This document shows positions 3,480-63,261 of a stretch of 64,000 bases of DNA, piece by piece. The translations under genes were made by a program, and so were the position numbers. The DNA lies in assembly GCA_963733675.1 (NCBI GenBank), contig CAVTET010000004.1, positions 224,001 through 288,000 of the forward strand. The letters are read 5' to 3'. A model generated the notes under the pieces. The model was given only the letters and a program-made list of their open reading frames with translations, was not told the DNA's origin and did no database searches. This stretch comes from an uncultured Methanosarcinaceae archaeon (lineage in GTDB: Archaea > Halobacteriota > Methanosarcinia > Methanosarcinales > Methanosarcinaceae). The number at the start of each line of letters is the position of its first letter. Within the stretch, counting starts at the first letter, position 1.

Positions 3480-4484
3480 TTATTTTTGCTTTCCTATTTC
3501 GATTTGTTTGAAAATTTCCTTTACAAAATTTTCTTTAGAATACAGATAAAAAGAAGCCGGAAGCCCGGTATTTGAGATCATATAGAGTAAGTTCATAGCT
3601 GTCCTGTTAAGTATCGGGTAGCAGTTTAAAAGAGAGCTCCTTGATATCCTCACCATTGCATCCAGAGATTTTATCCCTGTAAGGTAACTTTTTATACCCA
3701 TACTTCTCTGACTTTTTTCAAAAATCAGATCTATCCATGTATTCATCTCATCGATCAGAAGTTCCCTCGTAAGGTCTTCGGTAACTATGTAACTTTTCCC
3801 ATTTTTGATATTTTTGAAGAACTCTCCAAAATTATCACCCTTTGCAAGAGTGTAAACCTGTCCGAGCTTTCCTGAATGAGTGTCTGTTGTCGCAGCAATG
3901 CCTTTGTTGAATCTTTCAGCAAGAGAAATTGTAAGTTCATTTTTCGTCTTTAGCTCATGCATGTTATACTCAAGTACAGGAAAAAACTTTGCCAGCCTTA
4001 GTACTGCAGATGGTTTAGGTTCCTGATGAAAGTCGAACCAGAAAGGATGATTATACATAAAAGGCAATCTTCGATTCTTGAGGTATCTAACAAAACTTTT
4101 CAAATCTCGTTCTACTTCGGCGATTTCTCGAAGCTCGAAGAAATCCTCCCTATCAAGCTCAAAAACGTTGACATGCAGCTCGTGTCCTGCAAATTTCGGG
4201 TCAGCAACACTCATTTCAACTCCTGAAACAAGCTTTTCCCGATCCCATCCAAGAATCTCGTATGCCCCTATGGTATCGTGGTCTGTAAATATAATGTAAT
4301 CCATTCCCATCCCAAGGGCCTTCTCATAAAGACTCTCTGGATGCAGATTCTTTGCAGGAAGCACATCAAAGGAGCAGGTAGTATGCACGTGCAGGTCTGC
4401 TCGCCTCCAGCCCTCTTCTATAAGTTCCTCTGCACGGTCCGAAGTTATTAGCTTCTCTTCGTAATTTCTATTTCTTCTCCCCAT
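3480..4484 (-). CDS. PHP-domain metal-dependent phosphoesterase
   Basis: DLHVHT, TDHD, HP and TDTH metal-binding motifs. Confidence 0.8.
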   Translation of the reverse strand: MGRRNRNYEEKLITSDRAEELIEEGWRRADLHVHTTCSFDVLPAKNLHPESLYEKALGMGMDYIIFTDHDTIGAYEILGWDREKLVSGVEMSVADPKFAGHELHVNVFELDREDFFELREIAEVERDLKSFVRYLKNRRLPFMYNHPFWFDFHQEPKPSAVLRLAKFFPVLEYNMHELKTKNELTISLAERFNKGIAATTDTHSGKLGQVYTLAKGDNFGEFFKNIKNGKSYIVTEDLTRELLIDEMNTWIDLIFEKSQRSMGIKSYLTGIKSLDAMVRISRSSLLNCYPILNRTAMNLLYMISNTGLPASFYLYSKENFVKEIFKQIEIGKQK

Positions 4485-4867
4485 AGGTGTTAATCCATCG
4501 ATTTCAATTTTTTTGGATTATTTAAAATAGGTTTAAATTTTTTCCCAGTATAATATATCCTTTTTTAGATTAAGGTTTTTACGGAAAACTTTTAGGAGTA
4601 TTTAAAAGTTATCCAACTCCTATAGCGATTTTTTAAGCTTTTTTCTTGTTTTAGAATCATATACACGTTTTTCCTGGCCCATTATACCATATTTATAAAT
4701 ATTCAGAAATTGCATCGTTTTTTTATAAAAAAGTTATAAAATATTGATCAATTTAGAAGCTGAGGAATATCATCTACATAACTTTTGAAGACGAGTCAGA
4801 ACAAAAAAGAGACTAATGTTGAAGGTATATAATGGAGCTTTTTGATTAAAAGCAATGTTTATCCGAG

Positions 4868-9497: not shown

Positions 9498-10284
9498 TAT
9501 TTACTCCTCCATTAATGTGAGTTTGGAATAGCTCTTGAATTAGAATCGCAGTTTACATGTTTGTACTTCTATATAAATTCATCCCATTGATAACCTTGGT
9601 ATCTAGGGATTTTTGGGATTGATTTTCTAAAAGGACAGATCGATAAATCAGTTTTGCACCAATTTTTTCGCAGAATTTTGAAGTGCTGGCTATAAACAAG
9701 CCAGATTAAAAAAATTTAACTTTTACTTCATGATTTTTGTTGATATTTATGTTTTTTCTGGAAGTATTGATACTCATCAATAAACTAAAACTATTAATTA
9801 ACTGGAACTATACTTCTCCCACATAACCAGTGAATTGAAAATAAAAACCGAGAACGATTTAAATTAAATTAAGAGGTTTACTATTTACGAATTTTGTCAG
9901 TTTCGAAACAATTACTCTAAATTATAAAAGTGTCGAAAAAATATTCAAAATAATGAATTCATAGATTATGACAAGAACAATGACTCAACTTTCGGTATAG
10001 ACACAGCCAGTTTACTTTCTTATCTTCTGGATTGGGGAGTATCGTTGATATGATAACTTTACCTGATCAGTAGTCCAGATTTAATTTAGTTCCAGATTTA
10101 TTTGAGACCAGTAACTGTAGCCCAGAAAATTACCGGCACTTTTAATACCGCATAGATCCGCTTAGAATTCGTGAAAATAAATTATTTAATAGAAGGATAA
10201 TAATTTTCTAAAAACAGATTTGAGATAAACTGAAAAAAAGAACCTATTAGCAATTGTGTAAAGCAGATGTCAGCCATAAAAAAG

Positions 10285-51541: not shown

Positions 51542-52396
51542 GGTTCCGTTGCAAAAACTTCAACAAAATATGTAAATCTATAAGTGATTAATAAAAATCA
51601 AAACATTCAAGGAAAATGTACTAACATTATAAAACTATACCAAATAATTGATTAATGTATTTGACTTCATTAAGAACAGAGTAATTTAAATCGATTACTT
51701 GTCCTTTTTTGATCATATTTATAGCTTCAATTCCTTTTAAAGTCTTATTAGCAGATCGAAAAGACTGAAATCCTAACATTGGATTAACGATTCTCTTTAT
51801 AGATCTGTGATCTTGTTCTATAATGTTATTCAAATACTTGATTTGTCGAATGCCTACGTTTTTAGGTAGTATTTTATCAATTTTTAGTTTATCTATAGCA
51901 GGTGGATAAGCTGGATTCTTATCAACGGTTATTAATCTTGGAATTTGATTATGATTAGAACTTAAAGCTTTCTTAAAGAATCTCTTTGCTGCTTTTCTAT
52001 CTCGTTTTGAACTTAACATGAAATCAATTGTATCTCCATTTGAGTCAACTGCTCGGTAAAAATATTTCCATTTACCTTTTACTTTGATATAGGTTTCGTC
52101 AACTCTCCATGAATAGTTTGTTAGTCTTAAATGTCTTCTTATCTTCTTTTCGATTTCAGGAGAATATTGATGTACCCATCTCATTATAGTACTGTGATCA
52201 ACTTGAATTCCCCTTTCTATCATCATTTCCTTTAAATTTCTATAACTTAATGCATATTTTAAGTACCATCTTACATTCAATAAGATAATTTCCCCTTCAT
52301 AATGCTTCCATTTAAAGGAATTAGATAGCATGTTACTATCTTTGGTTTTCTTTTTATTCTATTGTATCATTAGAAAGGATTTTTTGCAACGGAACC
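51542..52396 (-). mobile_element. IS6-family insertion sequence, apparently intact
   Basis: Perfect 16-bp TIRs GGTTCCGTTGCAAAAA; 855 bp; no flanking target duplication. Confidence 0.93.
51627..52331 (-). CDS. IS6-family DDE transposase
   Basis: FKWKHY, WRVDETYIKVKGKW, RAVD, NNIIEQDHR. Confidence 0.95.
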   Translation of the reverse strand: MLSNSFKWKHYEGEIILLNVRWYLKYALSYRNLKEMMIERGIQVDHSTIMRWVHQYSPEIEKKIRRHLRLTNYSWRVDETYIKVKGKWKYFYRAVDSNGDTIDFMLSSKRDRKAAKRFFKKALSSNHNQIPRLITVDKNPAYPPAIDKLKIDKILPKNVGIRQIKYLNNIIEQDHRSIKRIVNPMLGFQSFRSANKTLKGIEAINMIKKGQVIDLNYSVLNEVKYINQLFGIVL

Positions 52397-52613
52397 CAAT
52401 ATCTTCTTTATAAATTCGTGTACCGTTCATCATCAAAACTAAATTGCTGTGCAGTTCTCCTTCCCTGGAAAAAAGTTGATCTTCGGAATCACCGACTTTT
52501 TGGCGAAATGATTTGAGGAGCTTTCTCATTGAGGTACCATCTGGATATTCAAGAAAACTGTCCGCTCCAAGAATGTCCTTAATCTGAGCAAAGGTTTTTA
52601 TTCGAATCTTCAT
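52397..52613 (-). pseudogene. MoaD/ThiS/SAMP ubiquitin-like sulfur carrier, 3'-truncated by IS6
   Basis: MKIRIKTFAQIKDILG...LVLMMNG beta-grasp pattern; frame runs into the IS6 IR at 52396; C-terminal GG absent. Confidence 0.8.
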
Positions 52614-52720: not shown

Positions 52721-52736
52721 ATTCACAATTGTGAAT
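52721..52736. promoter_or_regulatory. Palindromic operator ATTCACAATTGTGAAT (moaD/larE divergent region)
   Basis: Perfect 16-bp palindrome; recurs at 56654, 60396 and 60579. Confidence 0.75.
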
Positions 52737-52808
52737 GATGTTATGAAATATAAAGTTTTTGGAACTTGCAGAAGAGAACTGTGAAAATCAAAAGGTCGGT
52801 ATTCATTC

Positions 52809-53606
52809 ATGGACAAAGGAAGTATACACGATGCATTGCTCAAAGAGCTTTCAGGATTTGATTGCTTACTCATTTCATATTCTGGGGGTATAGACAGCAC
52901 TTTACTTGCAATATTTGCGCAAAAGGCACTCCACGAGAGAGCCAAGTGTATACTTTTTGATGCGCCTATAGTCCCAAGAAGAGCAGTTAATGATGCAATT
53001 GAAATCGCATGTAAATTCGGTTTATCCTACAGCATATTGCCTTTTTCCATAATGGAAAATGAAGAATTCAGGAAAAATAGCCCCAATCGTTGCTACATTT
53101 GCAAAAAACAATCTGCAAGGATTTTACGGGAACAAACTGAAAAGCTGGGAATTTCAAATATAGCAGATGGAATCAATGCTTCAGATCTTGATGAATACCG
53201 TCCAGGGCTTCAAGCAAGTAATGAAGAAAAGATCATTCATCCCTTTCTTTCTCTAGAAATTCAAAAAACTGAAATAAGGCAAATAGCTAAGGAATGTGGT
53301 TTTGATTTTTGGAACAAACCTTCATCTTCATGCCTTGCATCGCGAATTCCATACGGTGACGAAATCACGCTCGAGAAGCTGGAAATGGTGGAAAACGCGG
53401 AGAATATAATGCACGATCTGGGTTTTTCCAATTTGCGTGTACGTCTGCATGGTAAAATTGCACGAATCGAGTTGATACCTGAAGAATTCGAGAAAGCAAT
53501 AAACATTCGACATAGAATCGGGGAGTTATTGCAAGAATGCGGTTTTTCTTATGTCACTCTCGATCTTAAAGGATATAGAAGCGGCAGTATGGATGAAGTG
53601 CTATGA
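52809..53606 (+). CDS. larE: LarE-family ATP-dependent sulfur transferase
   Basis: PP-loop SYSGGIDS, RCYICK, DG.NASD...YRPG, KPSSSCLASRIPYG, GYRSGS. Confidence 0.88.
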   Translation: MDKGSIHDALLKELSGFDCLLISYSGGIDSTLLAIFAQKALHERAKCILFDAPIVPRRAVNDAIEIACKFGLSYSILPFSIMENEEFRKNSPNRCYICKKQSARILREQTEKLGISNIADGINASDLDEYRPGLQASNEEKIIHPFLSLEIQKTEIRQIAKECGFDFWNKPSSSCLASRIPYGDEITLEKLEMVENAENIMHDLGFSNLRVRLHGKIARIELIPEEFEKAINIRHRIGELLQECGFSYVTLDLKGYRSGSMDEVL

Positions 53607-54289
53607 AAATTGAAAATTATGTCGTTGATTTCCAGACACCTCAATATCTCCATCATGTGGATAATGCCGCAACAAGTCTGATTCATGATCAGTCATGACT
53701 TTGATTAACGAATACAATCGACAATATCACGCTAATGTGCAGTTTCAACCTTTTACACTAGAACAGGGAATACACATATATATAGGATTTTTTGGATAGG
53801 ATATTAAGGTCCGTATAAATAATGGCTGTCTGTAGACTCAATGCTCTTATAAGGTAATAAGTTCTGGATTAATACATTAAGTGGGCTTTTCCCAGACAAC
53901 TGTTACTTGTTGAAGAAGATTTTCCTCTGAAATGGTAAGAAAATTTCTGATAGCCAATATTTCTATTGTTGCCTCCAAAGTACCACCACTAATCCCGCCA
54001 TAAGTATGGGAAACGATCAGATTTTGTTATTGTTGAACGTTGTCCAAAGTCAAAACAGAAACATCTACACCAACATGAACAGGGGTAAGAATCATGAATG
54101 TGTTTGATCATACCATCCTGAACACTCTGCTTGATAGAACTTGGACTCTTTTAGAGAGGTCTCATCATTTTCGTTGGTATAAATTAGTGATTTAGAATAA
54201 ATTTATTAAGCATCATATAACTCTTTCTGCCCTGGATCTGTCTGATTTCCATAGCAAAATCAGAACAGAACCTCCCACCGATTATATTA

Positions 54290-54378
54290 AAAATTTCGAT
54301 AACTCACCGATTTTCACAAGTCATTTATATGCTATTTATAAGCATGTAATGAAATTAAGAAGTTTATCGAAATCTTCT
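54290..54378. repeat. ~88-bp MITE-like repeat copy
   Basis: ATTTCGATAA...TTATCGAAAT; interior GATTTTCACAAGTCATTTATAT. Confidence 0.7.
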
Positions 54379-54420
54379 ATATATTCCAGTATGGAACGTA
54401 ATACTCCTAGACTGATATTT

Positions 54421-55377
54421 TCAGGTGGACTGTTGATCTTGTACTTGTTCTTTGAATCGATTCCAGTTCCAAGGTTCATCAAGGATATTGACACTAACTT
54501 TTTCTATTCCGCCCACGTTCAGAACTTTTCGCTTTACTTGGTCCTTGAGGTATTCTGCCATAGGGCAAATATTTGTTGTCAATACAAGGTTTACGTCTAC
54601 ATTTGCTCCATCCACAATTACTTCTTTGACCATCCCCATCTTGACAATATCTATACCAACCTCTGGATCGATTACTTGTTTCAGCTGGGAATAAATTTGT
54701 TCATCTTTTTTAGGAACGGTTTTTTGTAAAAATGTCCTGTGCAAAGGTGCATATTTTTGTGCATGAGCCTGTTCTTCTAGCCTGCTCAACCTGTCAAGCA
54801 TTTGGCTTACTAAAGACAGCATGGGGTCAGGTAACTTATTGTGATCCAGTTGCCCTGCAGATACCGCTGGCTGTGGCTCTGCAATTCTGGCAGGGACCCC
54901 CACAACAGTAGCTTCGGGTGGGACTGATCGAATTACAACCGAGCCTGCACCTACTTTAGCACCTCTTCCAATAGTAATTGGTCCAAGTACAATCGAACCT
55001 GAACCAAGAACAACGTCTTTCTCAACAGTAGGATGGCGTTTTATCCTCTCAAGGGCTGTTCCTCCAAGTACAACTCCCATGTATATGAGGACGTCATCAC
55101 CTACTTCAGCAGTTTCACCAATTACTACGCCAGACCCATGATCAATAAATACCCGCTTTCCGAGTTTTGCTCCAGGGTGAATCTCAATTCCTGTAAGTGT
55201 CCTGGAGATATGGGATAGCAAACGAGCAAAAAAAAAGAAATGTTTTTCCCAGAGAAAGTGAGATAATCGATGAAACCAGACAGCATGCAGTCCTGGATAA
55301 CAGCAAAGTACTTCCAGAGTAGACCTTGCTGCAGGATCTTTTTCAAAAACTGTCCTTACATCTTCCCTGATTCCCAT
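54421..55377 (-). CDS. cysE: Serine O-acetyltransferase fused to a C-terminal DUF59/SufT (MIP18-like) domain
   Basis: [32 protein letters not shown]; then [14 protein letters not shown]...LTTNICP. Confidence 0.9.
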
Positions 55378-55407
55378 TTAGAACCTCCAATGTCAATTTC
55401 AAATAGA

Positions 55408-56334
55408 TCAATCAAACAGATCGGTACTCAGATAACGCTCTCCAGTATCCGGTAAGATTACAACAATCATTTTCCCGATCATTTCCACCCTGTAAGCAAC
55501 TTGCAATGCCGCATATGTAGCTGCACCTGAAGATATGCCTGCAAGGATACCTTCTTCTCTTGCTAATCTTTTGGCAGTAACAGCGGCATCGTCTCCATCT
55601 ACCTTAATTATCTCATCAACCAGGTCAAGCCGGAGTACATCAGGAATGAACCCTGCACCGATGCCTTGTATTCTATGGGGTCCGGGTTTTCCTCCGCTGA
55701 GAACTGGAGACTCTGCGGGTTCGACTGCAACTACCTTGAAAGTAGGTTTCCGTTTTTTGATGATGCTGGCAACACCTGTAATGGTTCCCCCTGTTCCCAC
55801 GCCTGCTACAATAGCATCCACCTTGCCATCAGTATCTTTCCATATTTCCTCGGCAGTCGTCCGGCTGTGGATTTCCGGGTTTTCAAGGTTCTGAAATTGC
55901 TGAGGTATAAAATAAAGCATAGGATCTTCTGCAGCCATTTGTTCTGCTCTACGGACTGCTCCTTTCATTCCTTCGCTTCCGGGTGTCAGGACGAGTTCTG
56001 CTCCCAGCGCCTTCAGTAGCTTTCTCCTTTCGATAGTCATTTTCTCAGGCATGACCAGTATCAATTTATAGCCACGGGCAGCACATACGCTTGCAAGTGC
56101 TATACCCGTATTACCGCTAGTTGGCTCAATTATGATAGTACCATTTTTGATCTTTCCTTCGCGTTCAGCTCCTTCGATCATTGCCAATCCAATTCTATCC
56201 TTTACACTTCCCAGTGGGTTAAAAGACTCCAGTTTGACTACCACATCAGCATACAGATCTTCTGTCATATGATTTAACCTAACAAGCGGTGTGTTACCTA
56301 TTGTCCATGTTATGTCGGAGTATATTTTTCCCAT
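55408..56334 (-). CDS. cysK: Cysteine synthase A (O-acetylserine sulfhydrylase)
   Basis: [15 protein letters not shown] (PLP Lys), [28 protein letters not shown]; start MGKIY. Confidence 0.96.
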
Positions 56335-56454
56335 GCAATTACCTTCTCCTGCTGTCTTCTCTAAATTCATGTAATTTAATTCATTCAAAAATATATCAAA
56401 AATTGCCAGTAATACATATTTTTTCACTTGAAACCTTTATCGAGCATAATTACA

Positions 56455-56565
56455 GAGGATTTCAATAAAGCTCTAATTTACACGAGTCACCTGTATATAA
56501 TTTGTACACTATTTCTATACAATTTGTAAGGGTATGACAAAATTTAGAGGTTTGATCGAAATCTC
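56455..56565. repeat. MITE-like repeat copy with ~20-bp internal insertion, in the cysK leader
   Basis: GAGGATTTCAATAAA...TTTGATCGAAATCTC; reverse-complement homolog of 67-151. Confidence 0.7.
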
Positions 56566-56653
56566 TACATCTTATCTTAAGCATTACAAAGCGCCTGAAA
56601 TTTTGCAATTCTGAGCTAGCATTTATATCGCAATATAAAGCGATTTACAAAAT

Positions 56654-56669
56654 ATTCACAATTGTGAAT
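56654..56669. promoter_or_regulatory. Palindromic operator upstream of cysK-cysE
   Basis: Perfect ATTCACAATTGTGAAT, 14 nt downstream of a minus-strand TATA-like CTATATAT. Confidence 0.75.
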
Positions 56670-56872
56670 TTAGCTTATGTTAGATATATAGTTATCAAGG
56701 AGCTTTTGTACCTAAGAGTATAAAATTGGCGAAAACTCTGAATTCTTTTATTTTTTTACCTATGTACTTGTAAACTCGATTATTTCAGCGCATATAGGAA
56801 TCCGCTTGTTCTCAACTGCAGCCGCTCTATCAATTGCAAAAAAGAAAATAAGATTCGCATAGTGTATTGGAA

Positions 56873-57020
56873 GGTTCCGTTGCAAAATAATATTTTTGCA
56901 TTTTGACACTATAATTTCCGCCTTTATGTGTCATTTTTTTCTAATGAAAATGATTAACTTTCCGAATTGTAAAGATATTTTCTGATTTTGCAAGAAAGCC
57001 ATATTTTTTGCACCAGAGCC
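56873..57020. mobile_element. IS6-derived non-autonomous mini-element
   Basis: Ends GGTTCCGTTGCAAAA and TTTTGCACCAGAGCC (12/15 inverted repeat); 148 bp; non-coding. Confidence 0.6.
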
Positions 57021-57122
57021 CTGAAACCTATATCAAAGTAAAAGGTAAATTGAAATATTTTTACCGAGCAGTTGACTCAAATGGAGATACAATTGATTTC
57101 ATGTTAAGTGCAAAACGAAACC
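57021..57122 (+). pseudogene. IS6 transposase internal fragment
   Basis: ETYIKVKGKLKYFYRAVDSNGDTIDFMLSAKR, nearly identical to the other IS6 copies. Confidence 0.85.
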
Positions 57123-57814
57123 GGATGAATAGCTAATGATTGTTTGATAAAATTTATGTTTTCTTGTCTTCATTGATGCATAGGTTTTATAGCAAAAAAT
57201 ATGCATAAACTAGAAAATAAAAGTTTTTTCGCGTTTTTTTAGATCTTAAATTGATTGTAGTTAATTGCGAGTTAAATTAACGATAAATTTTGGCAATCAC
57301 AGAAAATAGTAAAAGATTTCCGAAAACAATAAAAATATTTTTAGTATTAGATAGTTGTTTATTTTAAAATAATCTTTGGGAAAGTAATTTTTAATTAGAA
57401 ACTATTAAAAATAATTATTCAGTTGAAAAGTGATTACTTCAAGAAATTAACATCGAATCGAAATTTGATTTCCCCACAATATATTTTTGGTAAGATTATA
57501 CGTATTGCACATCAATTTAGAAATTGAAAGTATAAATTTTCCACTTAAAATAGCAAAGAGCGTATAATCTTAATTTATTTTGCTTCTTTAGGAAAAGCAT
57601 AATGTTAGGTTCTAACAAGTTTGGAAATAATAAAAAATAATTATTAATATTTAATTGCTCTTTGAATGTGAAATATTTAATGCAGCATTATTTTTCGTTT
57701 AGAAACTTTTTTTCGTATCATTAATTTAAAATAATGACGGTGACAAAAATAACACACCAATAAGCATGTACATCATCAGCACATAAAAATTGAGCAAAAA
57801 TAGGTATATAATTA

Positions 57815-58864
57815 ATGGGAAAACACGCATTTGAGAAGACAAAAAAGATACTGAATATTTTAACGATAATTTTTTGTTTTTTGATTTTGGCAACTATCCC
57901 AATCGCTGTGTGTTATGCAAAAGCACCAACCGAAGTTACAATGCCAGTTCCCACACTGGCTCCTATACCAATCAATGCAACAACAAACTACCAAGATTCT
58001 CAATGGTTGGCAATGTATCTATCAAATTCACTTGTTGTAACTAATGATATGAAATACCTAGGTACTGCATTAATAAACAACAATTTTACATCAGCTAACA
58101 ACGAGTTCACGTCAGTCTCTACATGTGCAAATACTTTAGACATAAATAGCCAGAAAGCTATAAATGATAGTGATTTATACAGTGTATCACCTGATTTACA
58201 AAGCGCAAAAGATGAATATCGACTACAAATGGTACAGGCCAAAAGTGCAGCAGTTTATATTTATCATGGAATCGAAGCTTATAATAAAGGAGATATTGAA
58301 GCCGGAAACTCGTATATGGAACAAGCTGTTCATAGTCTTTATTTAGTCACAAAACATGCTAATAAAACGGAAAAACTATTAAAAGCTTATATTCCTGCCT
58401 TGATCCAAGTACCAATCAATGCAACAACAAACTACCAAGATTCTCAATGGTTAGCAACGTATCTATCAAATTCACTTGTTGTAGCTAATGACATGAAATT
58501 CCTAGGTACTGCGTTAATGAACAACAATTTTACATCAGCTAACAACGATTTCACGTCAGTCTCTACATATGCAAATACTTTATATAAAGATAGCCAGAAA
58601 GCTATAAATGATAGTGATTTATACAGTGTATCGCCTGATTTACAAAGTGCAAAAGATGAATATCGACTACAAATGATACAAGCCAAAAATGCAGCCGTTT
58701 ATAATTATCATGGAATCGAATCTTATAAAAAAGGAGATATTGAAGCCGGAGACTCTGAGATGAAACAAGCTATTCAAAGTATTAATTCCATCACAGAACA
58801 TGCTAATAAAACGGCAAAGCTACTGAAAGCGGTTCCGTTGCAAAAAATTCAAAAAAATATGTGA
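57815..58864 (+). CDS. Secreted protein with a tandemly duplicated 148-aa helical domain; C-terminus replaced by IS6 sequence
   Basis: Signal peptide; repeats start at 57968 and 58412 (444-bp period); IS6 IR begins at 58831. Confidence 0.8.
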   Translation: MGKHAFEKTKKILNILTIIFCFLILATIPIAVCYAKAPTEVTMPVPTLAPIPINATTNYQDSQWLAMYLSNSLVVTNDMKYLGTALINNNFTSANNEFTSVSTCANTLDINSQKAINDSDLYSVSPDLQSAKDEYRLQMVQAKSAAVYIYHGIEAYNKGDIEAGNSYMEQAVHSLYLVTKHANKTEKLLKAYIPALIQVPINATTNYQDSQWLATYLSNSLVVANDMKFLGTALMNNNFTSANNDFTSVSTYANTLYKDSQKAINDSDLYSVSPDLQSAKDEYRLQMIQAKNAAVYNYHGIESYKKGDIEAGDSEMKQAIQSINSITEHANKTAKLLKAVPLQKIQKNM

Positions 58865-59029
58865 ATTTATAAGTAATGAATAAAAGTCAAAATATTCAAG
58901 GAAAATGTACCAACATTATAAAACTATACCAAACAATTGATTAATATATTTAACTTCATTAAGAACAGAGTAATTTAGATTATTGACTTGTCCTTTTTTG
59001 ACCACATTCATAGCTTCAATTCCTTTTAA
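58831..59029 (-). mobile_element. IS6 right-end fragment (inverted copy of the end of the adjacent IS6)
   Basis: Exact reverse complement of 59688-59886 as read by eye. Confidence 0.85.
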
Positions 59030-59886
59030 GGTTCCGTCGCAAAAAAAATTCTTTCTAATGATACAATAGAATAAAAAGAAAACCAAAGATAGTAATATGC
59101 TATCTGATTCCTTTAAATGGAAGCATTATGAAGGAGAAATTATCCTATTGAATGTAAGATGGTACTTAAAATACCCACTGAGCTATAGAAATTTAAAGGG
59201 AATGATGATAGAAAGAGGAATTCAAGTTGATCACAGTACTATAATGAGACGGGTCCATCAATATTCTCCTGAAATAGAAAAGAAGATAAGAAGACATTTA
59301 AGACCAACAAATGATTCGGGGAGAGTTGATGAAACCTATATCAAAATAAAAGGTAAATGGAAATATCTTTATCGAGCAGTTGACTCAAATGGAGATACAA
59401 TTGATTTCATGTTAAGTTAAAAACGAAATAGAAAAGCAGCGAATAGATTCTTTAAGAAAGCTTTAAGTTCAAATCATAATCAAATTCCAAGAGTAATAAC
59501 CGTTGATAAGAATCCAGCTTATCCACCTGCTATAGATAAACTGAAAAATGATAAAATACTACCTAAAAACGTAGGCATTCGACAAATCAAGTATTTGAAT
59601 AACATTATAGAACAAGATCATCGATATATAAAGCGGATAATTGCTCCAATGTTAGGATTTCAGTCTTTTCAATCTGCTAATAAAACCTTAAAAGGAATTG
59701 AAGCTATGAATGTGGTCAAAAAAGGACAAGTCAATAATCTAAATTACTCTGTTCTTAATGAAGTTAAATATATTAATCAATTGTTTGGTATAGTTTTATA
59801 ATGTTGGTACATTTTCCTTGAATATTTTGACTTTTATTCATTACTTATAAATTCACATATTTTTTTGAATTTTTTGCAACGGAACC
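59030..59886 (+). mobile_element. IS6-family insertion sequence with nonsense-mutated transposase
   Basis: IRs GGTTCCGTCGCAAAAA / TTTTTGCAACGGAACC. Confidence 0.9.
59097..59801 (+). pseudogene. IS6 transposase pseudogene
   Basis: TAA at 59418-59420 where the intact copy has TCA; same frame continues to 59801. Confidence 0.88.
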
Positions 59887-60018
59887 ATTCATAGTGTATG
59901 ACATACACAAAAAGATTGTAGAAATAATTTGCATCAAATTAAGGATTTCTACATAGCCCAATCTAAATATGTTTCCATCCCAGTAGCAAGCTGCGGTGTA
60001 TTCAACTTAAATAAGCTT

Positions 60019-60387
60019 TTATTTTTCAAGTTTTATTTCTTTCTTACCTAAATCTTCGAGACCAAAACTGCTTTTACAGTTACTTTCAATTCCTCTTGCA
60101 TTTACGCAGATCTGACATATCCTTGCCACAAAGTCGTCGACTTTGTTGTCAATCAAGTCCTGTGCAAGCTTTTCGATCAATTCCTTCGTTTCGCCCTCAA
60201 ATTCGATCCTGTACCCTCTTTTTCCCAAGATATACTGGGAAACTGCTGACGGCGCAATCCCCAGCAACTTTGCAGAAGTTGCCTGTGACTGTCCTTTATT
60301 TACAAGTTCTATTGCAAGACTGGCTCTTATTGCAGGGACAAGATCCCATACAGCCTTCTGACATGGAGTTTCCATAATCACCATCAT
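60019..60387 (-). CDS. HTH transcriptional regulator with Cys motifs (COG2522-like)
   Basis: TPC, PAIRASLA, SQATSAKLLGIAPSAVSQY (XRE-like HTH), GKRG, ICQIC; divergent from iscS. Confidence 0.82.
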   Translation of the reverse strand: MMVIMETPCQKAVWDLVPAIRASLAIELVNKGQSQATSAKLLGIAPSAVSQYILGKRGYRIEFEGETKELIEKLAQDLIDNKVDDFVARICQICVNARGIESNCKSSFGLEDLGKKEIKLEK

Positions 60388-60395
60388 ACTTACTG

Positions 60396-60411
60396 AATCA
60401 CAATTGTGAAT
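60396..60411. promoter_or_regulatory. Operator copy directly upstream of the HTH regulator
   Basis: AATCACAATTGTGAAT (15/16 match), 8 nt from the regulator start codon. Confidence 0.72.
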
Positions 60412-60578
60412 TAGTATATTGTATATCCCTATATATTACTTTCATTGTAAAAAATAATTGTACTGGGATTGAGCTACAAATTGATGATTTCTATACAAAC
60501 AGCTAGTTTTTAAAAATTTGTCTAATTTATCCTAATGTATCACACGATAAAAATTAAATAGTGATAATCTTTATGATT

Positions 60579-60594
60579 ATTAACAATTGTGAAG
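60579..60594. promoter_or_regulatory. Operator copy directly upstream of iscS
   Basis: ATTAACAATTGTGAAG (14/16 match), 8 nt before the GTG at 60603. Confidence 0.62.
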
Positions 60595-60602
60595 GTGTAG
60601 GT

Positions 60603-61787
60603 GTGACAGTTGAGAACGTGAAAATTTACATGGACAACTCTGCTACAACTCCTGTAAGAAAAGAAGTTGTCGAAAGTATGATACTTTACATGACAGAAAA
60701 TTTCGGAAACCCTTCTTCAATTCATGATCTGGGGAAAACCTCTAAACATGCAATCGAAAACGCAAGAAAAAAGGTTGCAAAAGCTATAGGTGCTGAAGAA
60801 TATGAAGTTTATTTTACATCAGGAGGGACCGAATCCAATAACTGGGCAATAAAGGGGATAGCCTTTGCAAACAGGAATAAAGGAAAACATATCATCACCT
60901 CCTCGATAGAACATCATTCAGTCCTGCACGCATGTGAATGGCTAGAAGGACAGGAATTTGAGGTAACATATCTCCCTGTGGATAAATATGGAGTAGTATC
61001 TCCTGAGGAACTTAAGAACGCAATTAGGGACGATACGATACTCATTTCCATAATGTTTGCGAATAACGAAATTGGGACAATTCAACCTGTAGAAGAAATC
61101 GGAAAAATTGCAAGAGAAAACAGAATATATTTCCATACCGATGCGGTTCAGGCAGTAGGCCATATCCCTATAGATGTCAATAAAATGAATATTGACCTTC
61201 TATCCCTTTCAGGACATAAATTCCAAGGACCTAAGGGATGCGGAGTACTCTACATAAAAACAGGAACAAAAACAGAAACGCTTATTCATGGTGGGAATCA
61301 GGAAAGAAAACGAAGGGCTGGAACCGAAAATGTCTCAGCTATTGTAGGTATTGGGAAGGTTATAGAGCTTGCAACAGGTGAGATTGAAGAATCAAACAAA
61401 ATCTTGCTTGAAATGAGAGAGAGCCTGATTAAAGGTCTTATTAAGATTCCGAAAACCCATCTTAATGGGCATCCCACACAAAGGCTTGCAAACAACATAA
61501 ATGTAACTTTTGCATACATAGAAGGGGAATCTCTTCTGCTTATGTTAAATGCGAAAGGAATTTTTGCATCTGCAGGAAGCGCTTGTAACTCTTCTTCTAT
61601 CGAAACCTCGCATGTGCTTACAGCTTGTGGAGTCACGCATGAGATAATTCGCGGTTCTTTGAGATTGAGTCTTGGAATGATGAATACCCCAGAAGATGTG
61701 GATAGGGTACTTGAGATTCTTCCTGAAATAGTGCAGAAGCTAAGAAATATGTCACCATTGACGCCTCAGGAATATAGGACTCTTTAA
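60603..61787 (+). CDS. iscS: Cysteine desulfurase (IscS/NifS type)
   Basis: YMDNSATT, GNPSS, SGGTESNN, HTDAVQ, SGHK (PLP Lys), SAGSAC catalytic Cys. Confidence 0.95.
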   Translation: MTVENVKIYMDNSATTPVRKEVVESMILYMTENFGNPSSIHDLGKTSKHAIENARKKVAKAIGAEEYEVYFTSGGTESNNWAIKGIAFANRNKGKHIITSSIEHHSVLHACEWLEGQEFEVTYLPVDKYGVVSPEELKNAIRDDTILISIMFANNEIGTIQPVEEIGKIARENRIYFHTDAVQAVGHIPIDVNKMNIDLLSLSGHKFQGPKGCGVLYIKTGTKTETLIHGGNQERKRRAGTENVSAIVGIGKVIELATGEIEESNKILLEMRESLIKGLIKIPKTHLNGHPTQRLANNINVTFAYIEGESLLLMLNAKGIFASAGSACNSSSIETSHVLTACGVTHEIIRGSLRLSLGMMNTPEDVDRVLEILPEIVQKLRNMSPLTPQEYRTL

Positions 61788-61897
61788 GAAAACGAATGAG
61801 GGAAACAAAATAAGATGGAGAATTGCTAAGAAATTTTGAGTTAGAAGAAGTTTTTTGAATAATTTGAAGATTGGAAAATATTGATAGAGGATGGCTC

Positions 61898-62278
61898 ATG
61901 GATTACAGCGCTAAAGTGATGGACCATTTTTTAAATCCCAGAAATATGGGAAGTATTGAGAACAGTGATGGAATAGGTGAGGTTGGAAACGCAAAATGCG
62001 GAGATTTAATGAAGATATTCCTCAAAATAGACGGAGATCGGATTGCAGACGTGAAGTTCCAGACGTTTGGATGCGTGGCTGCAATCGCATCAAGCAGTAT
62101 GGCAACCAAACTAATCAAAGGAAGAACTCTGGAAGAAGCTTGGAATCTTTCAAATAAAGCAGTTGCAGAAGCGCTTGATGGGCTCCCACCGACAAAAATG
62201 CACTGTTCAATGCTTGCAGAAGAAGCAGTCCATGAAGCTATTAACGACTATCTCAGAAAAAAAGGACTTGAGTCCTGA
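61898..62278 (+). CDS. iscU: Fe-S cluster scaffold IscU/NifU
   Basis: HFLNPRNMG, CGD, FGC, LPPTKMHC. Confidence 0.95.
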   Translation: MDYSAKVMDHFLNPRNMGSIENSDGIGEVGNAKCGDLMKIFLKIDGDRIADVKFQTFGCVAAIASSSMATKLIKGRTLEEAWNLSNKAVAEALDGLPPTKMHCSMLAEEAVHEAINDYLRKKGLES

Positions 62279-62529: not shown

Positions 62530-63261
62530 ATGGATAAAAATATAACTGGAAAATATATCCGGCAAATAATGCTTTTTGGAGTAGAAGGCCAGGAAAAATT
62601 AAGCAAGGCAAGAGTATTTGTTGCTGGAACAGGGGGGTTAGGGTCTCCGATCTCAACTTACCTCGCGGTTGCAGGTATCGGGGAAATAATAATTGCAGAT
62701 TTTGATATAGTAGATTCCAGCAATCTGAATAGACAGTTTCTCCACCATGAAAGAGACATTGGAAGAGATAAGGTAGAATCTGCGAAAGAAAAACTTATTT
62801 CTCTAAATCCTGAAATAAAAGTGGATACGATCAAGGAAAAAATAACTGATGAAAATGTAAGCTCAATAGTCCCTCTTTGTGACCTGATCATAGATGCGCT
62901 TGACAATTTTGAGACTAGACATTCTTTGAATAAGCTTTCAGTTGAACGAAAAATACCCCTTATTCACGGCGCAGTATCAGGGTACAGGGGCCAAGTGACA
63001 ACAGTAATCCCAGGAAAAACACCATGTCTTTGCTGTTTATTCCCTAGCTCATTCAAAAAAGAAGTATTTCCGGTACTTGGAACAACCCCAGGAGTAATTG
63101 GTGCGATTCAGGCAAATGAAGCGATTAAATATATAACAGGCCAGGGAAAGCTTCTGGAAAATCGTCTCTTGTTATGGGACGGTTTTTCATGCTCTTTTAG
63201 CGAACTAAATGTTAACAAAACAGATAATTGTCCGGTATGCGGAATTAATGGGAAAGGATGA
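62530..63261 (+). CDS. ThiF/MoeB/UbaA-family E1-like adenylyltransferase
   Basis: GTGGLG, SNLNRQ, DALDN, PCLCC and CPVC zinc motifs. Confidence 0.9.
   Translation: MDKNITGKYIRQIMLFGVEGQEKLSKARVFVAGTGGLGSPISTYLAVAGIGEIIIADFDIVDSSNLNRQFLHHERDIGRDKVESAKEKLISLNPEIKVDTIKEKITDENVSSIVPLCDLIIDALDNFETRHSLNKLSVERKIPLIHGAVSGYRGQVTTVIPGKTPCLCCLFPSSFKKEVFPVLGTTPGVIGAIQANEAIKYITGQGKLLENRLLLWDGFSCSFSELNVNKTDNCPVCGINGKG

Follow-up and report, generated by a model that had tools for sequence, protein, structure and literature searches.

A candidate sulfur and Fe-S regulon with a palindromic operator and a cysteine-bearing helix-turn-helix regulator in Methanosarcinaceae

Introduction

IscR, an Rrf2-type [2Fe-2S] protein of Escherichia coli and other bacteria, is a small autoregulated repressor encoded beside iscSU, and its cysteine ligands are thought to report whether iron-sulfur (Fe-S) clusters suffice and to feed back on the cluster-assembly genes. 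Rrf2 proteins are about 150 residues long and hold their cluster by three closely spaced cysteines (together with a histidine, glutamate or aspartate) in the C-terminal part. CymR (Rrf2 family; Bacillus and Staphylococcus) and CysB (LysR family; Enterobacteria) are master cysteine regulators over cysK/cysE-type genes and sulfur assimilation; CymR needs CysK as a co-repressor, and CysB senses N-acetylserine via a large effector domain. Among methanogens, the nitrogen repressor NrpR of Methanococcus maripaludis and Methanosarcina mazei senses 2-oxoglutarate and acts at the operator GGAA-N6-TTCC. SurR of Pyrococcus and Thermococcus is about 230 residues long, has two winged-helix domains and a CxxC redox switch, and governs hydrogenase and S0-reduction genes. 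Methanogens have very high Fe-S and sulfur demands, and we know of essentially no account of how they control sulfur assimilation, their two-route cysteine synthesis or Fe-S biogenesis. Here we analyse a stretch of 64,000 nucleotides (nt) from the genome of an uncultured Methanosarcinaceae archaeon, hereafter the window, in which copies of a 16-bp palindrome stand at genes for cysteine synthesis, sulfur transfer and Fe-S assembly and at the gene of a 122-residue helix-turn-helix (HTH) protein, the predicted regulator.

We consider it very probable that these elements form a real sulfur regulon with the 122-residue protein as its regulator. A preliminary description of the sequence had proposed a sulfur/Fe-S regulon with a cognate cysteine-bearing HTH regulator, and this proposal is well supported by the rarity of the palindrome, its presence at nearly all orthologous loci, its co-occurrence with the regulator and its co-variation with the regulator in a sister family.

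Results and discussion

The palindrome in the window and its genome

The window comprises positions 224001-288000 of contig C4 of a 15-contig, 92%-complete genome (G000; 3,920,191 bases, 36% G+C). A scan with the 16-mer ATTCACAATTGTGAAT (consensus A-T-T-C-A-C-A-A / T-T-G-T-G-A-A-T, half-site TTCACAA) recovered all four copies of the preliminary description with the same positions and mismatches. These operator copies and the regulator gene are:

52721..52736, operator copy 1 (no mismatch), in the promoter region between the divergent moaD-like gene and larE; a minus-strand TTTATATT box at 52747-52754 ends 10 nt before it
56654..56669, operator copy 2 (no mismatch), ahead of cysK-cysE on the minus strand; TATA-like box at 56683-56691, 13 nt upstream
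60396..60411, operator copy 3, 15/16 (one mismatch), 8 nt upstream of the regulator's first ATG; TATA-like box at 60429-60437, 17 nt upstream on the minus strand
60579..60594, operator copy 4, 14/16 (two mismatches), 8 nt upstream of the iscS GTG at 60603; A/T-rich box at 60550-60560, 18 nt upstream
60019..60387, minus strand, HTH regulator of 122 residues without an assigned Pfam or NCBIfam family

The 8-nt distances, which had also been reported before, are correct when measured to the ATG at 60387 and, for iscS, to the GTG at 60603. The true start of the regulator may be the ATG at 60375 (METPCQ...), and that of iscS is likely the GTG at 60603 or 60618. Copy 3 is presumed to be an autoregulatory site.

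Motif counts were scored against a first-order Markov expectation for the whole genome, with mismatches counted relative to the 16-mer. Within the window, five matches with up to three mismatches were observed against 1.25 expected, a number reached in 1 of 100 shuffles. The earlier statement that the motif occurs nowhere else in the window stands for up to two mismatches and needs one amendment, a match at 9943 that has three mismatches and is at chance level. Genome-wide, the perfect 16-mer occurs three times against 0.006 expected, and the totals for up to one, two and three mismatches are 4 (0.28 expected), 13 (5.7 expected) and 69 (70.8 expected), from which it follows that copies with zero to two mismatches carry signal and those with three mismatches are noise. 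The core 12-mer TCACAATTGTGA was found eight times (0.49 expected) and CACAATTGTG eleven times (4.1 expected). The half-site-only pattern TTCAC-N4-GTGAA is not enriched in this genome, with 6 matches compared with 13 for its reversed control, and the central AATT is therefore part of the motif here.

The genome scan that the preliminary description had suggested thus finds a motif that is rare and lies upstream of sulfur genes. Seven of the 13 sites with up to two mismatches are located at the regulator, iscS, cysK, larE/moaD-like, metX, tRNA-Cys-sepCysS or a decayed tRNA-Cys copy. The other six (C1:945188, C3:401529, C4:193328, C4:573073, C6:177064 and C12:126765) are about as many as expected by chance and probably are chance matches: C3:401529 and C4:193328 fall in coding sequence, C4:573073 lies between convergent genes, C6:177064 lies 130 nt before a small cupin gene and C12:126765 lies 148 nt before an ABC-ATPase/CobW-like/FeS gene set.

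Conservation and co-variation with the regulator

A search of 121 genomes of the order with the regulator protein gave matches at E <= 1e-5 in 67, among them all 33 sampled genomes of the window's own family (f1). Phylogenetic footprinting beside orthologous regulators, likewise suggested earlier, covered 1.5 kb on each side of 30 ortholog loci with up to three mismatches allowed, and at least one palindrome copy was present in 29 of these 30 loci across genera. The 29 f1 loci contain 60 copies in 94,916 bases, compared with about 1.7 at the background rate of the window's genome. Outside the window's genus, most loci have a copy 46-113 nt before the aligned regulator start. Within the genus, strong copies are found on both sides of the regulator gene (towards cysK and towards iscS) and the copy next to the regulator is weaker; a site equivalent to operator copy 4 lies at -198 to -293 relative to the regulator in eight same-genus loci. 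In symmetrised counts, which are biased by the search pattern, there is hardly any change at positions 3, 5, 6 and 8, and variation is seen at positions 1, 2, 4 and 7.

For co-occurrence, 41 family genomes were scanned for a 14-mer of the palindrome with at most one mismatch, using its non-complemented reverse as control. The E-values of the regulator matches are bimodal and separate orthologs (<=2.3e-26) from a paralog of about 36% identity (>=7.3e-15) that is present in most family genomes. The 17 genomes with the ortholog contain 83 sites versus 12 control hits, and the 24 genomes without it contain 15 sites versus 9 control hits. Because these genomes are relatives of unequal size and completeness, this co-occurrence is supportive rather than a formal test.

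In the sister family f3, in which the regulator is 39-45% identical, a variant palindrome TTAACAATTGTTA(A/T), also given as TTAACAATTGTTAA, is located 24-25 nt before the regulator gene in all seven loci, with a TTTATATA-type TATA box 13-14 nt further upstream, and an eighth locus (L038) is alike. The two half-sites of this operator carry matching substitutions (C to A, G to T), which is what a change in the dimer that recognises it would be expected to produce. In all five loci of family f4 (L102-L106), the regulator comes third in an iscS-iscU-regulator operon, and four of these loci have in common a conserved non-palindromic promoter-proximal stretch (...GTTAAGTTTATTCTAATGATGC...).

The regulator protein

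The regulator contains P8-C9, an HTH at about residues 34-57, C91-x2-C94 and C104, which agrees with the N-terminal PC, the C-terminal CxxC and the further cysteine noted in the preliminary description. It matches no Pfam or NCBIfam family above cut-off; hmmscan against Pfam-A (E <= 10) returned sub-threshold HTH_3, Cro, HTH_23 and similar rows and no Rrf2, the HTH_3 match (PF01381; residues 34-57) having an E-value of 0.03 and 14.8 bits against a cut-off of 23. A word-indexed search identified 284 relatives at E <= 0.001, and the 120 of these that were listed are 75-98% identical; the named relatives among those listed are from Methanosarcina species and are labelled only 'transcriptional regulator', 'XRE family' or 'hypothetical'. 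An exhaustive HMMER search yielded 767 cluster representatives at E <= 0.001, of which 83 reach E <= 1e-10, and in the nearest ESM Atlas clusters 38-59% of the members carry HTH_3, with only the generic annotation 'transcriptional regulator / HTH_3'.

C9, C91, C94 and C104 are invariant in all 30 orthologs, whose genomes represent several genera. Across 73 aligned sequences of the wider family, P8, P18, A48, S50, Y52, R57, G58, A75, C91 and C94 are kept in at least 90% of the rows, and many members carry an additional C-terminal CxxC. The regulator conforms to the pattern of this archaeal 'PC...CxxC' HTH family: P-C near the N-terminus, (A/S)-A-V-S-Q-Y...K-R-G as the recognition region, and a C-terminal helix that contains I-C-x-I-C. 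It belongs to a large archaeal family that combines an XRE-like HTH with a cysteine-rich tail.

The AlphaFold2 model has five helices and a confidence score (pLDDT) of 83.4, with the HTH helices above 90, residues 102-115 including C104 below 50 and the CxxC in the last helix; modelled in this way, the protein would consist of an XRE-like HTH (about residues 12-62) followed by two further helices bearing C91xxC94. A sequence search of the PDB gave no significant match (best E 0.052, a designed repeat protein), and Foldseek against the PDB found nothing at E <= 0.001 (best E 0.46), its XRE matches being weak (E 0.6, TM-score 0.34-0.45). The best match of a wide VIA-align search was a DeoR HTH over 48 residues (Z 5.0). 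The weak fold matches (XRE, ClgR and DeoR/SorC HTH domains) indicate that only the generic HTH is recognised in solved structures; the solved structures searched offer no counterpart to the cysteine-bearing C-terminal helices or to the long N-terminal helix that begins at the PC motif. Neither the Pfam scan nor the model contains a ligand-binding (effector) domain in the 122 residues. A homodimer prediction scored 0.29 against a mark of 0.42, which bears neither way.

A second copy of the regulator gene in the same genome (C4:119156-119476, plus strand), with 64% identity across residues 7-114, is broken by a single TAA and is probably a pseudogene.

The tRNA-Cys link and the regulon beyond the window

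The preliminary description missed part of the regulon, which reaches beyond the window and takes in a dedicated tRNA-Cys gene with sepCysS, homocysteine synthase and metX. The sites concerned are:

C4:288174, operator TGTCACAATTGTGAAT, 174 nt past the window end and 287 nt upstream of the MetX-CBS gene
C1:179298 (perfect) and C1:179109 (GGTCACAATTGTGACT), operators upstream of sepCysS and the gene for O-acetylhomoserine sulfhydrylase (OAHS)

A tRNA-Cys(GCA) gene identified with Rfam and ARAGORN (C1:179704-179775; L001:3205-3276) immediately precedes sepCysS. Since it occupies that stretch, the 88-residue N-terminal extension of the sepCysS open reading frame (ORF) is spurious. A decayed tRNA-Cys copy follows the sites at C1:179109 and C3:561069 by about 25 nt (C1:179148-179196 and C3:561107-561154, respectively).

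Among 30 tRNA-Cys loci detected by BLAST in the family, the 14-mer with up to two mismatches was present in 7 and absent from 23, and one of the seven is a probable chance match downstream of the tRNA. The operator-linked tRNA-Cys genes are 89-95% identical to the sepCysS-linked copy, compared with about 80% for ordinary tRNA-Cys. The site stands 8 nt from the tRNA-Cys gene in G112, 17 nt in G010 and 20 nt in G063, and a further genome of the window's genus (G015) contains three intact tandem tRNA-Cys genes, each with a site that ends 8-9 nt before the mature 5' end. This set of operator-linked genes suggests that a dedicated tRNA-Cys isodecoder belongs to the regulon together with the enzyme that makes cysteine on tRNA, and on the sequence evidence the isodecoder appears to be co-regulated with sepCysS.

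In the window's genome, sepCysS consists of two overlapping ORFs in different frames (353 and 143 residues; L001:3203-4264 and 4246-4677), which reflects either a real frameshift or an assembly error; the gene is in a single frame in G010, G063 and G112. MetX (homoserine O-acetyltransferase; C4:288461-289981, L003:2461-3981) carries two fused C-terminal CBS domains, which may add a second, allosteric layer of control to the same pathway.

Regulon content in other genomes

In G010, the gene order is larE-thiF-iscU-iscS (minus strand), two sites, the regulator (plus strand), two further sites and tRNA-Cys-sepCysS-OAHS-metX, such that iscS-iscU-thiF-larE stand behind one operator region. In G063, which is of the window's genus, cysE-cysK (minus strand) are followed by a site, the regulator (minus strand), another site, a site at the iscS start and iscS-iscU, with two sites further on before tRNA-Cys-sepCysS-OAHS.

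A function-blind listing of all 14-mer copies with at most one mismatch in four genomes of other genera comprised 18 sites. Fifteen of these precede the regulator, tRNA-Cys-sepCysS-OAHS(-metX), iscS or DsrE-like-iscS-iscU, TusA, Thi4-iscSU, ThiM, or an iscS fragment/NadA pair, with TusA and ThiM sites each occurring in two genera. The other three are inside a methyltransferase ORF, before an IS66 transposase and between genes of no known role. The predicted core regulon consists of the regulator, iscSU and tRNA-Cys-sepCysS-OAHS(-metX), to which lineage-specific additions are made; the putative additions in the window's genome are cysKE and the larE/moaD-like pair. In the latter genome, the ThiM, DsrE-like, NadA and radical-SAM orthologs have no site within 500 nt, Thi4 has a three-mismatch match only, and TusA gave no tblastn match at the thresholds used.

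Genes of the window locus

The earlier gene calls (moaD-like/larE, cysK-cysE, HTH regulator and iscS) agree with the Pfam and NCBIfam matches, that of the MoaD-like protein being weak. The genes are:

60561..61787, plus strand, cysteine desulfurase of the NifS/IscS type (TIGR03402, 588.8 bits)
61871..62278, plus strand, Fe-S scaffold IscU/NifU (TIGR03419, 221.5 bits)
62530..63261, plus strand, ThiF/MoeB-type adenylyltransferase (E1-like), downstream of iscSU
55408..56427, minus strand, cysteine synthase CysK (TIGR01139, 467.8 bits)
54421..55377, minus strand, serine O-acetyltransferase CysE with a C-terminal FeS_assembly_P (SufT-like) domain (Pfam/NCBIfam matches)
52809..53606, plus strand, LarE-type PP-loop ATP-dependent sulfur transferase (TIGR00268, 286.6 bits)
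52359..52613, minus strand, MoaD/SAMP-like small protein (weak match, under the curated cut-off)
51627-52331 (minus strand) and 59097-59420, IS6 transposase genes or fragments

The thiF gene is probably in one transcription unit with iscSU. The FeS_assembly_P/SufT-like domain of CysE occupies residues 226-297 and joins a cysteine-synthesis enzyme to an Fe-S assembly module. The arrangement of the operator upstream of cysK-cysE is the same in G063. The MoaD-like ORF ends in ...FLMIQ and lacks the C-terminal Gly-Gly typical of such carriers; its last 13 or so codons lie beyond the IS6 boundary, which is marked by loose RNA-contig ends at 52396-52400, and the gene looks truncated by the IS6 insertion. 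The gap between cysK and the regulator measures 3.3 kb in the window versus about 0.4 kb with one operator in G063. It contains an ORF-poor, A/T-rich stretch of 1.1 kb (56700-57800), a 349-residue ORF of no family (57815-58864) and the truncated IS6 transposase at 59097-59420, and the very high contig depth of 56700-59900 in RNA libraries suggests repeated or mobile DNA.

Promoter geometry and RNA evidence

As read from the sequence, the distance from the end of the TATA-like box to the site is 10 nt for the moaD-like gene, 13 nt for cysK, 17 nt for the regulator, 18 nt for iscS, 21 nt for larE, 22 nt for tRNA-Cys-sepCysS and 24 nt for metX. The arrangement described earlier, with the operator 11-18 nt downstream of a TATA-like box, is thus seen, with a slightly wider range of 10-24 nt. 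Archaeal transcription starts about 25 nt downstream of the TATA centre, and this rule together with the observed spacing places the starts inside or at the edge of the operator. A start across the operator, in a position as in archaeal repressors such as NrpR, leads us to propose repression by occlusion.

The RNA evidence consists of metatranscriptome contigs of related strains. They contain 5-17% of the words sampled, are uninformative about transcription starts, strand and level, and carry no meaning where cover is lacking. RNA libraries include the stretch from cysK to its operator, and in one study the contigs of two runs end at 56640/56641, 13 nt before reaching the cysK operator, which is a weak hint of a start site. 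A function of the palindrome as an RNA hairpin was considered and is unlikely: its stems have weak energies of -4.9 to -5.4 kcal/mol, no fold forms at the iscS copy, one half alone is altered in many of the natural variants, and the spacing is kept to the TATA box and not to the start codon.

Proposed mechanism and alternative explanations

The whole explanation that we slightly favour is an autoregulated dimeric repressor with a Cys4 site that reports Fe-S or sulfur status. Taken separately, it is likely that the regulator acts as a repressor, and the use of an Fe-S cluster as the sensor is plausible, if held with less than even confidence. According to this model, the regulator would bind the 16-bp palindrome as a dimer, and occupancy of the operator across the transcription start would block the recruitment of RNA polymerase or initiation. 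It would repress its own gene, iscS-iscU(-thiF), cysK-cysE, larE and the moaD-like gene, outside the window also tRNA-Cys with sepCysS and O-acetylhomoserine sulfhydrylase as well as metX, and in other genera additionally tusA, dsrE-iscSU, thi4 and thiM. The four cysteines would hold an Fe-S cluster whose occupancy reports sulfide, cysteine and Fe-S sufficiency, so that the holo-protein would repress and, as sulfur or clusters become scarce, the apo-protein would come off the DNA. Derepression would then provide more cysteine, Cys-tRNA, homocysteine, sulfur carriers and cluster-assembly machinery. A cluster is favoured because of the tight and ancient linkage to iscSU and because cluster occupancy would be a read-out of sulfur and iron in a sulfide-dependent organism, and the four invariant cysteines from both ends of the 122 residues fit one tetrahedral site.

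Several observations weigh against this explanation. The autoregulatory site is weak or missing at up to three mismatches in the same-genus loci L010, L011, L013, L014, L016 and L017, there is no site within 1.5 kb of the regulator in locus L024, and no palindrome was found upstream of iscS in the five f4 loci. The perfect site before sepCysS is about 390 nt from tRNA-Cys and the cysK site at least 227 nt from the start codon, and at both genes long leaders or other promoters must therefore be assumed. In one run, an RNA contig begins at least 35 nt upstream of 60570 and does not fit a start inside the iscS operator; transcription in a related strain may begin upstream of that operator, or DNA may have been carried over. 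The E-value threshold for orthologs was chosen after the bimodality had been seen, and counts across related genomes overstate independence. C104 lies in the low-confidence segment of the model (pLDDT below 50), and the four cysteines fit a structural zinc site as well as an Fe-S cluster. The analysis shows the statistics and conservation of the motif, its co-occurrence with the regulator, their co-variation and the content of the regulon; from these data we infer that this protein binds the palindrome, that it does so as a dimer, that it represses and by what chemistry it senses.

The alternative that survives best keeps the same regulator and operator and gives the cysteines a role other than Fe-S binding, either as a structural zinc site in combination with a small-molecule signal (O-acetylserine, cysteine, homocysteine or S-adenosylmethionine) or as a thiol/persulfide switch that senses sulfane sulfur or redox state like CstR/SqrR-type or SurR-type sensors. 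We regard it as possible, though rather unlikely. The sequence does not distinguish zinc from Fe-S, and the additional C-terminal CxxC of many wider-family members recalls the CxxC...CxxC typical of zinc ribbons; moreover, a regulon centred on sulfur carriers (TusA, DsrE, ThiF/MoaD and LarE) and cysteine, and not on Fe-S assembly alone, would suit a persulfide or sulfide sensor. However, C9 is invariant together with the C-terminal cysteines in the 30 orthologs, which fits a single four-ligand site for a cluster or a metal, the 122 residues leave no ligand-binding domain for a small molecule, and the tight linkage to iscSU in three families parallels the logic of IscR.

It is improbable that the protein binds the palindrome as an activator, or acts in both directions depending on the promoter. 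Such a role would accommodate the distant site before tRNA-Cys in the window's genome and those 250-800 nt before TusA, DsrE-iscSU and NadA elsewhere, and a site may also lie upstream of a gene-proximal TATA-like box, as with the TTTATGA 3 nt before the iscS site. Nevertheless, the best-defined promoters, which are those of the regulator (f1 and f3), cysK, the moaD-like gene and the tRNA-Cys genes with a site 8-9 nt from the mature 5' end, run from TATA over 10-17 nt to the site, a short leader and the gene. The archaeal repressors NrpR, MDR1 and LrpA act from a position between TATA and the start or across the start.

Recognition of the palindrome by another factor, or its spread as a repeat with tRNA-Cys or insertion sequence copies, with the HTH protein as a passenger, is very improbable, for although two copies are attached to decayed tRNA-Cys duplicates and some have thus spread by duplication, the cluster is riddled with IS6 copies, and the same-genus genome G067 (a 150-contig assembly) has four sites and no ortholog found, the co-occurrence counts (83/12 versus 15/9), the conservation of the site beside the ortholog across genera, the symmetric change of the operator in the family with the diverged regulator (f3) and the sites before non-homologous, functionally related genes at unlinked places all speak against it.

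Significance

To our knowledge, this would be the first predicted sulfur regulon in methanogens; both its putative regulator family and its operator would be new, and a tRNA gene is among its predicted targets. More tentatively, the regulator might be the first archaeal master regulator of sulfur assimilation and represent a new Fe-S-sensing family unrelated to Rrf2/IscR, which would couple cluster status to cysKE, to tRNA-dependent cysteine formation (the dedicated tRNA-Cys and sepCysS) and to sulfur relay and cluster assembly. If so, the control of a tRNA gene by a transcription factor within an amino-acid regulon would be unusual in itself, and many further regulators that sense metals or sulfur may be found across Archaea in the wider family of 767 representative clusters. 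The predicted regulon would also provide a first function for an archaeal HTH family that is large and uncharacterised. Methanosarcina acetivorans has an ortholog (P0097) with 78% identity to the regulator, and the conserved regulator-operator pair and the predicted regulon are testable in this genetically tractable species. The pair furthermore offers a sulfur-responsive promoter/operator module for methanogen engineering.

Comparison with known systems

The preliminary description knew of no described operator for this regulator family, and the literature agrees: none was found in open-access PMC and bioRxiv texts, and neither the motif nor the protein nor any sulfur regulon was found described there for Methanosarcinales or other archaea. 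The one paper found to deal with the locus is PMC7585200, in which IscS2/IscU2 are characterised and whose main text is silent on the neighbouring regulator. The locus tag MA2719, which may name the ortholog, is indexed once for this paper and is absent from its main text. The main texts of PMC10846266 and PMC12068725 (proteome and transcriptome of M. barkeri and M. acetivorans) gave no usable co-regulation data. As far as its consulted text goes, the AmzR preprint (10.1101/2025.05.05.652248) concerns a different protein, MA2561.

The iscS-iscU-regulator operon of family f4 mirrors iscRSUA. In contrast to IscR, the regulator described here has no match to the Rrf2 domain (PF02082) and an XRE-like HTH, its operator differs, and the predicted regulon also spans cysteine and homocysteine synthesis, a tRNA-Cys gene and sulfur carriers. 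Its four cysteines, in the arrangement C9...C91-x2-C94-x9-C104 with one at the extreme N-terminus, likewise differ from the ligands of the Rrf2 proteins IscR, CymR, NsrR and RsrR. With CymR and CysB, the locus shares the inclusion of cysK/cysE-type genes within one sulfur regulon, although the protein belongs to another family without an Rrf2, LysR or effector domain and acts in an archaeal promoter context.

Among archaeal regulators, SurR also combines a CxxC with a tie to sulfur availability. The present regulator, however, is modelled with one HTH and five helices and has its CxxC in the last helix, whereas that of SurR is in the N-terminal DNA-binding domain, and the DNA motifs differ; no SurR-like row appeared among the PDB, Foldseek or VIA-align matches shown, with distant kinship still possible. 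Its HTH at residues 34-57 resembles the XRE/Cro-C1 HTH_3 superfamily, to which it gives only sub-threshold HTH_3/Cro matches. NrpR, too, is a methanogen regulator of several operons, and its palindromic operator lies just past the TATA box and overlaps the start, as is predicted here, but it is unrelated in protein and operator and controls nitrogen instead of sulfur. In its predicted function, the regulator is thus closest to IscR and to CymR/CysB, and in its putative mode of action at the promoter it resembles NrpR, while by its sequence it is a member of none of these families.

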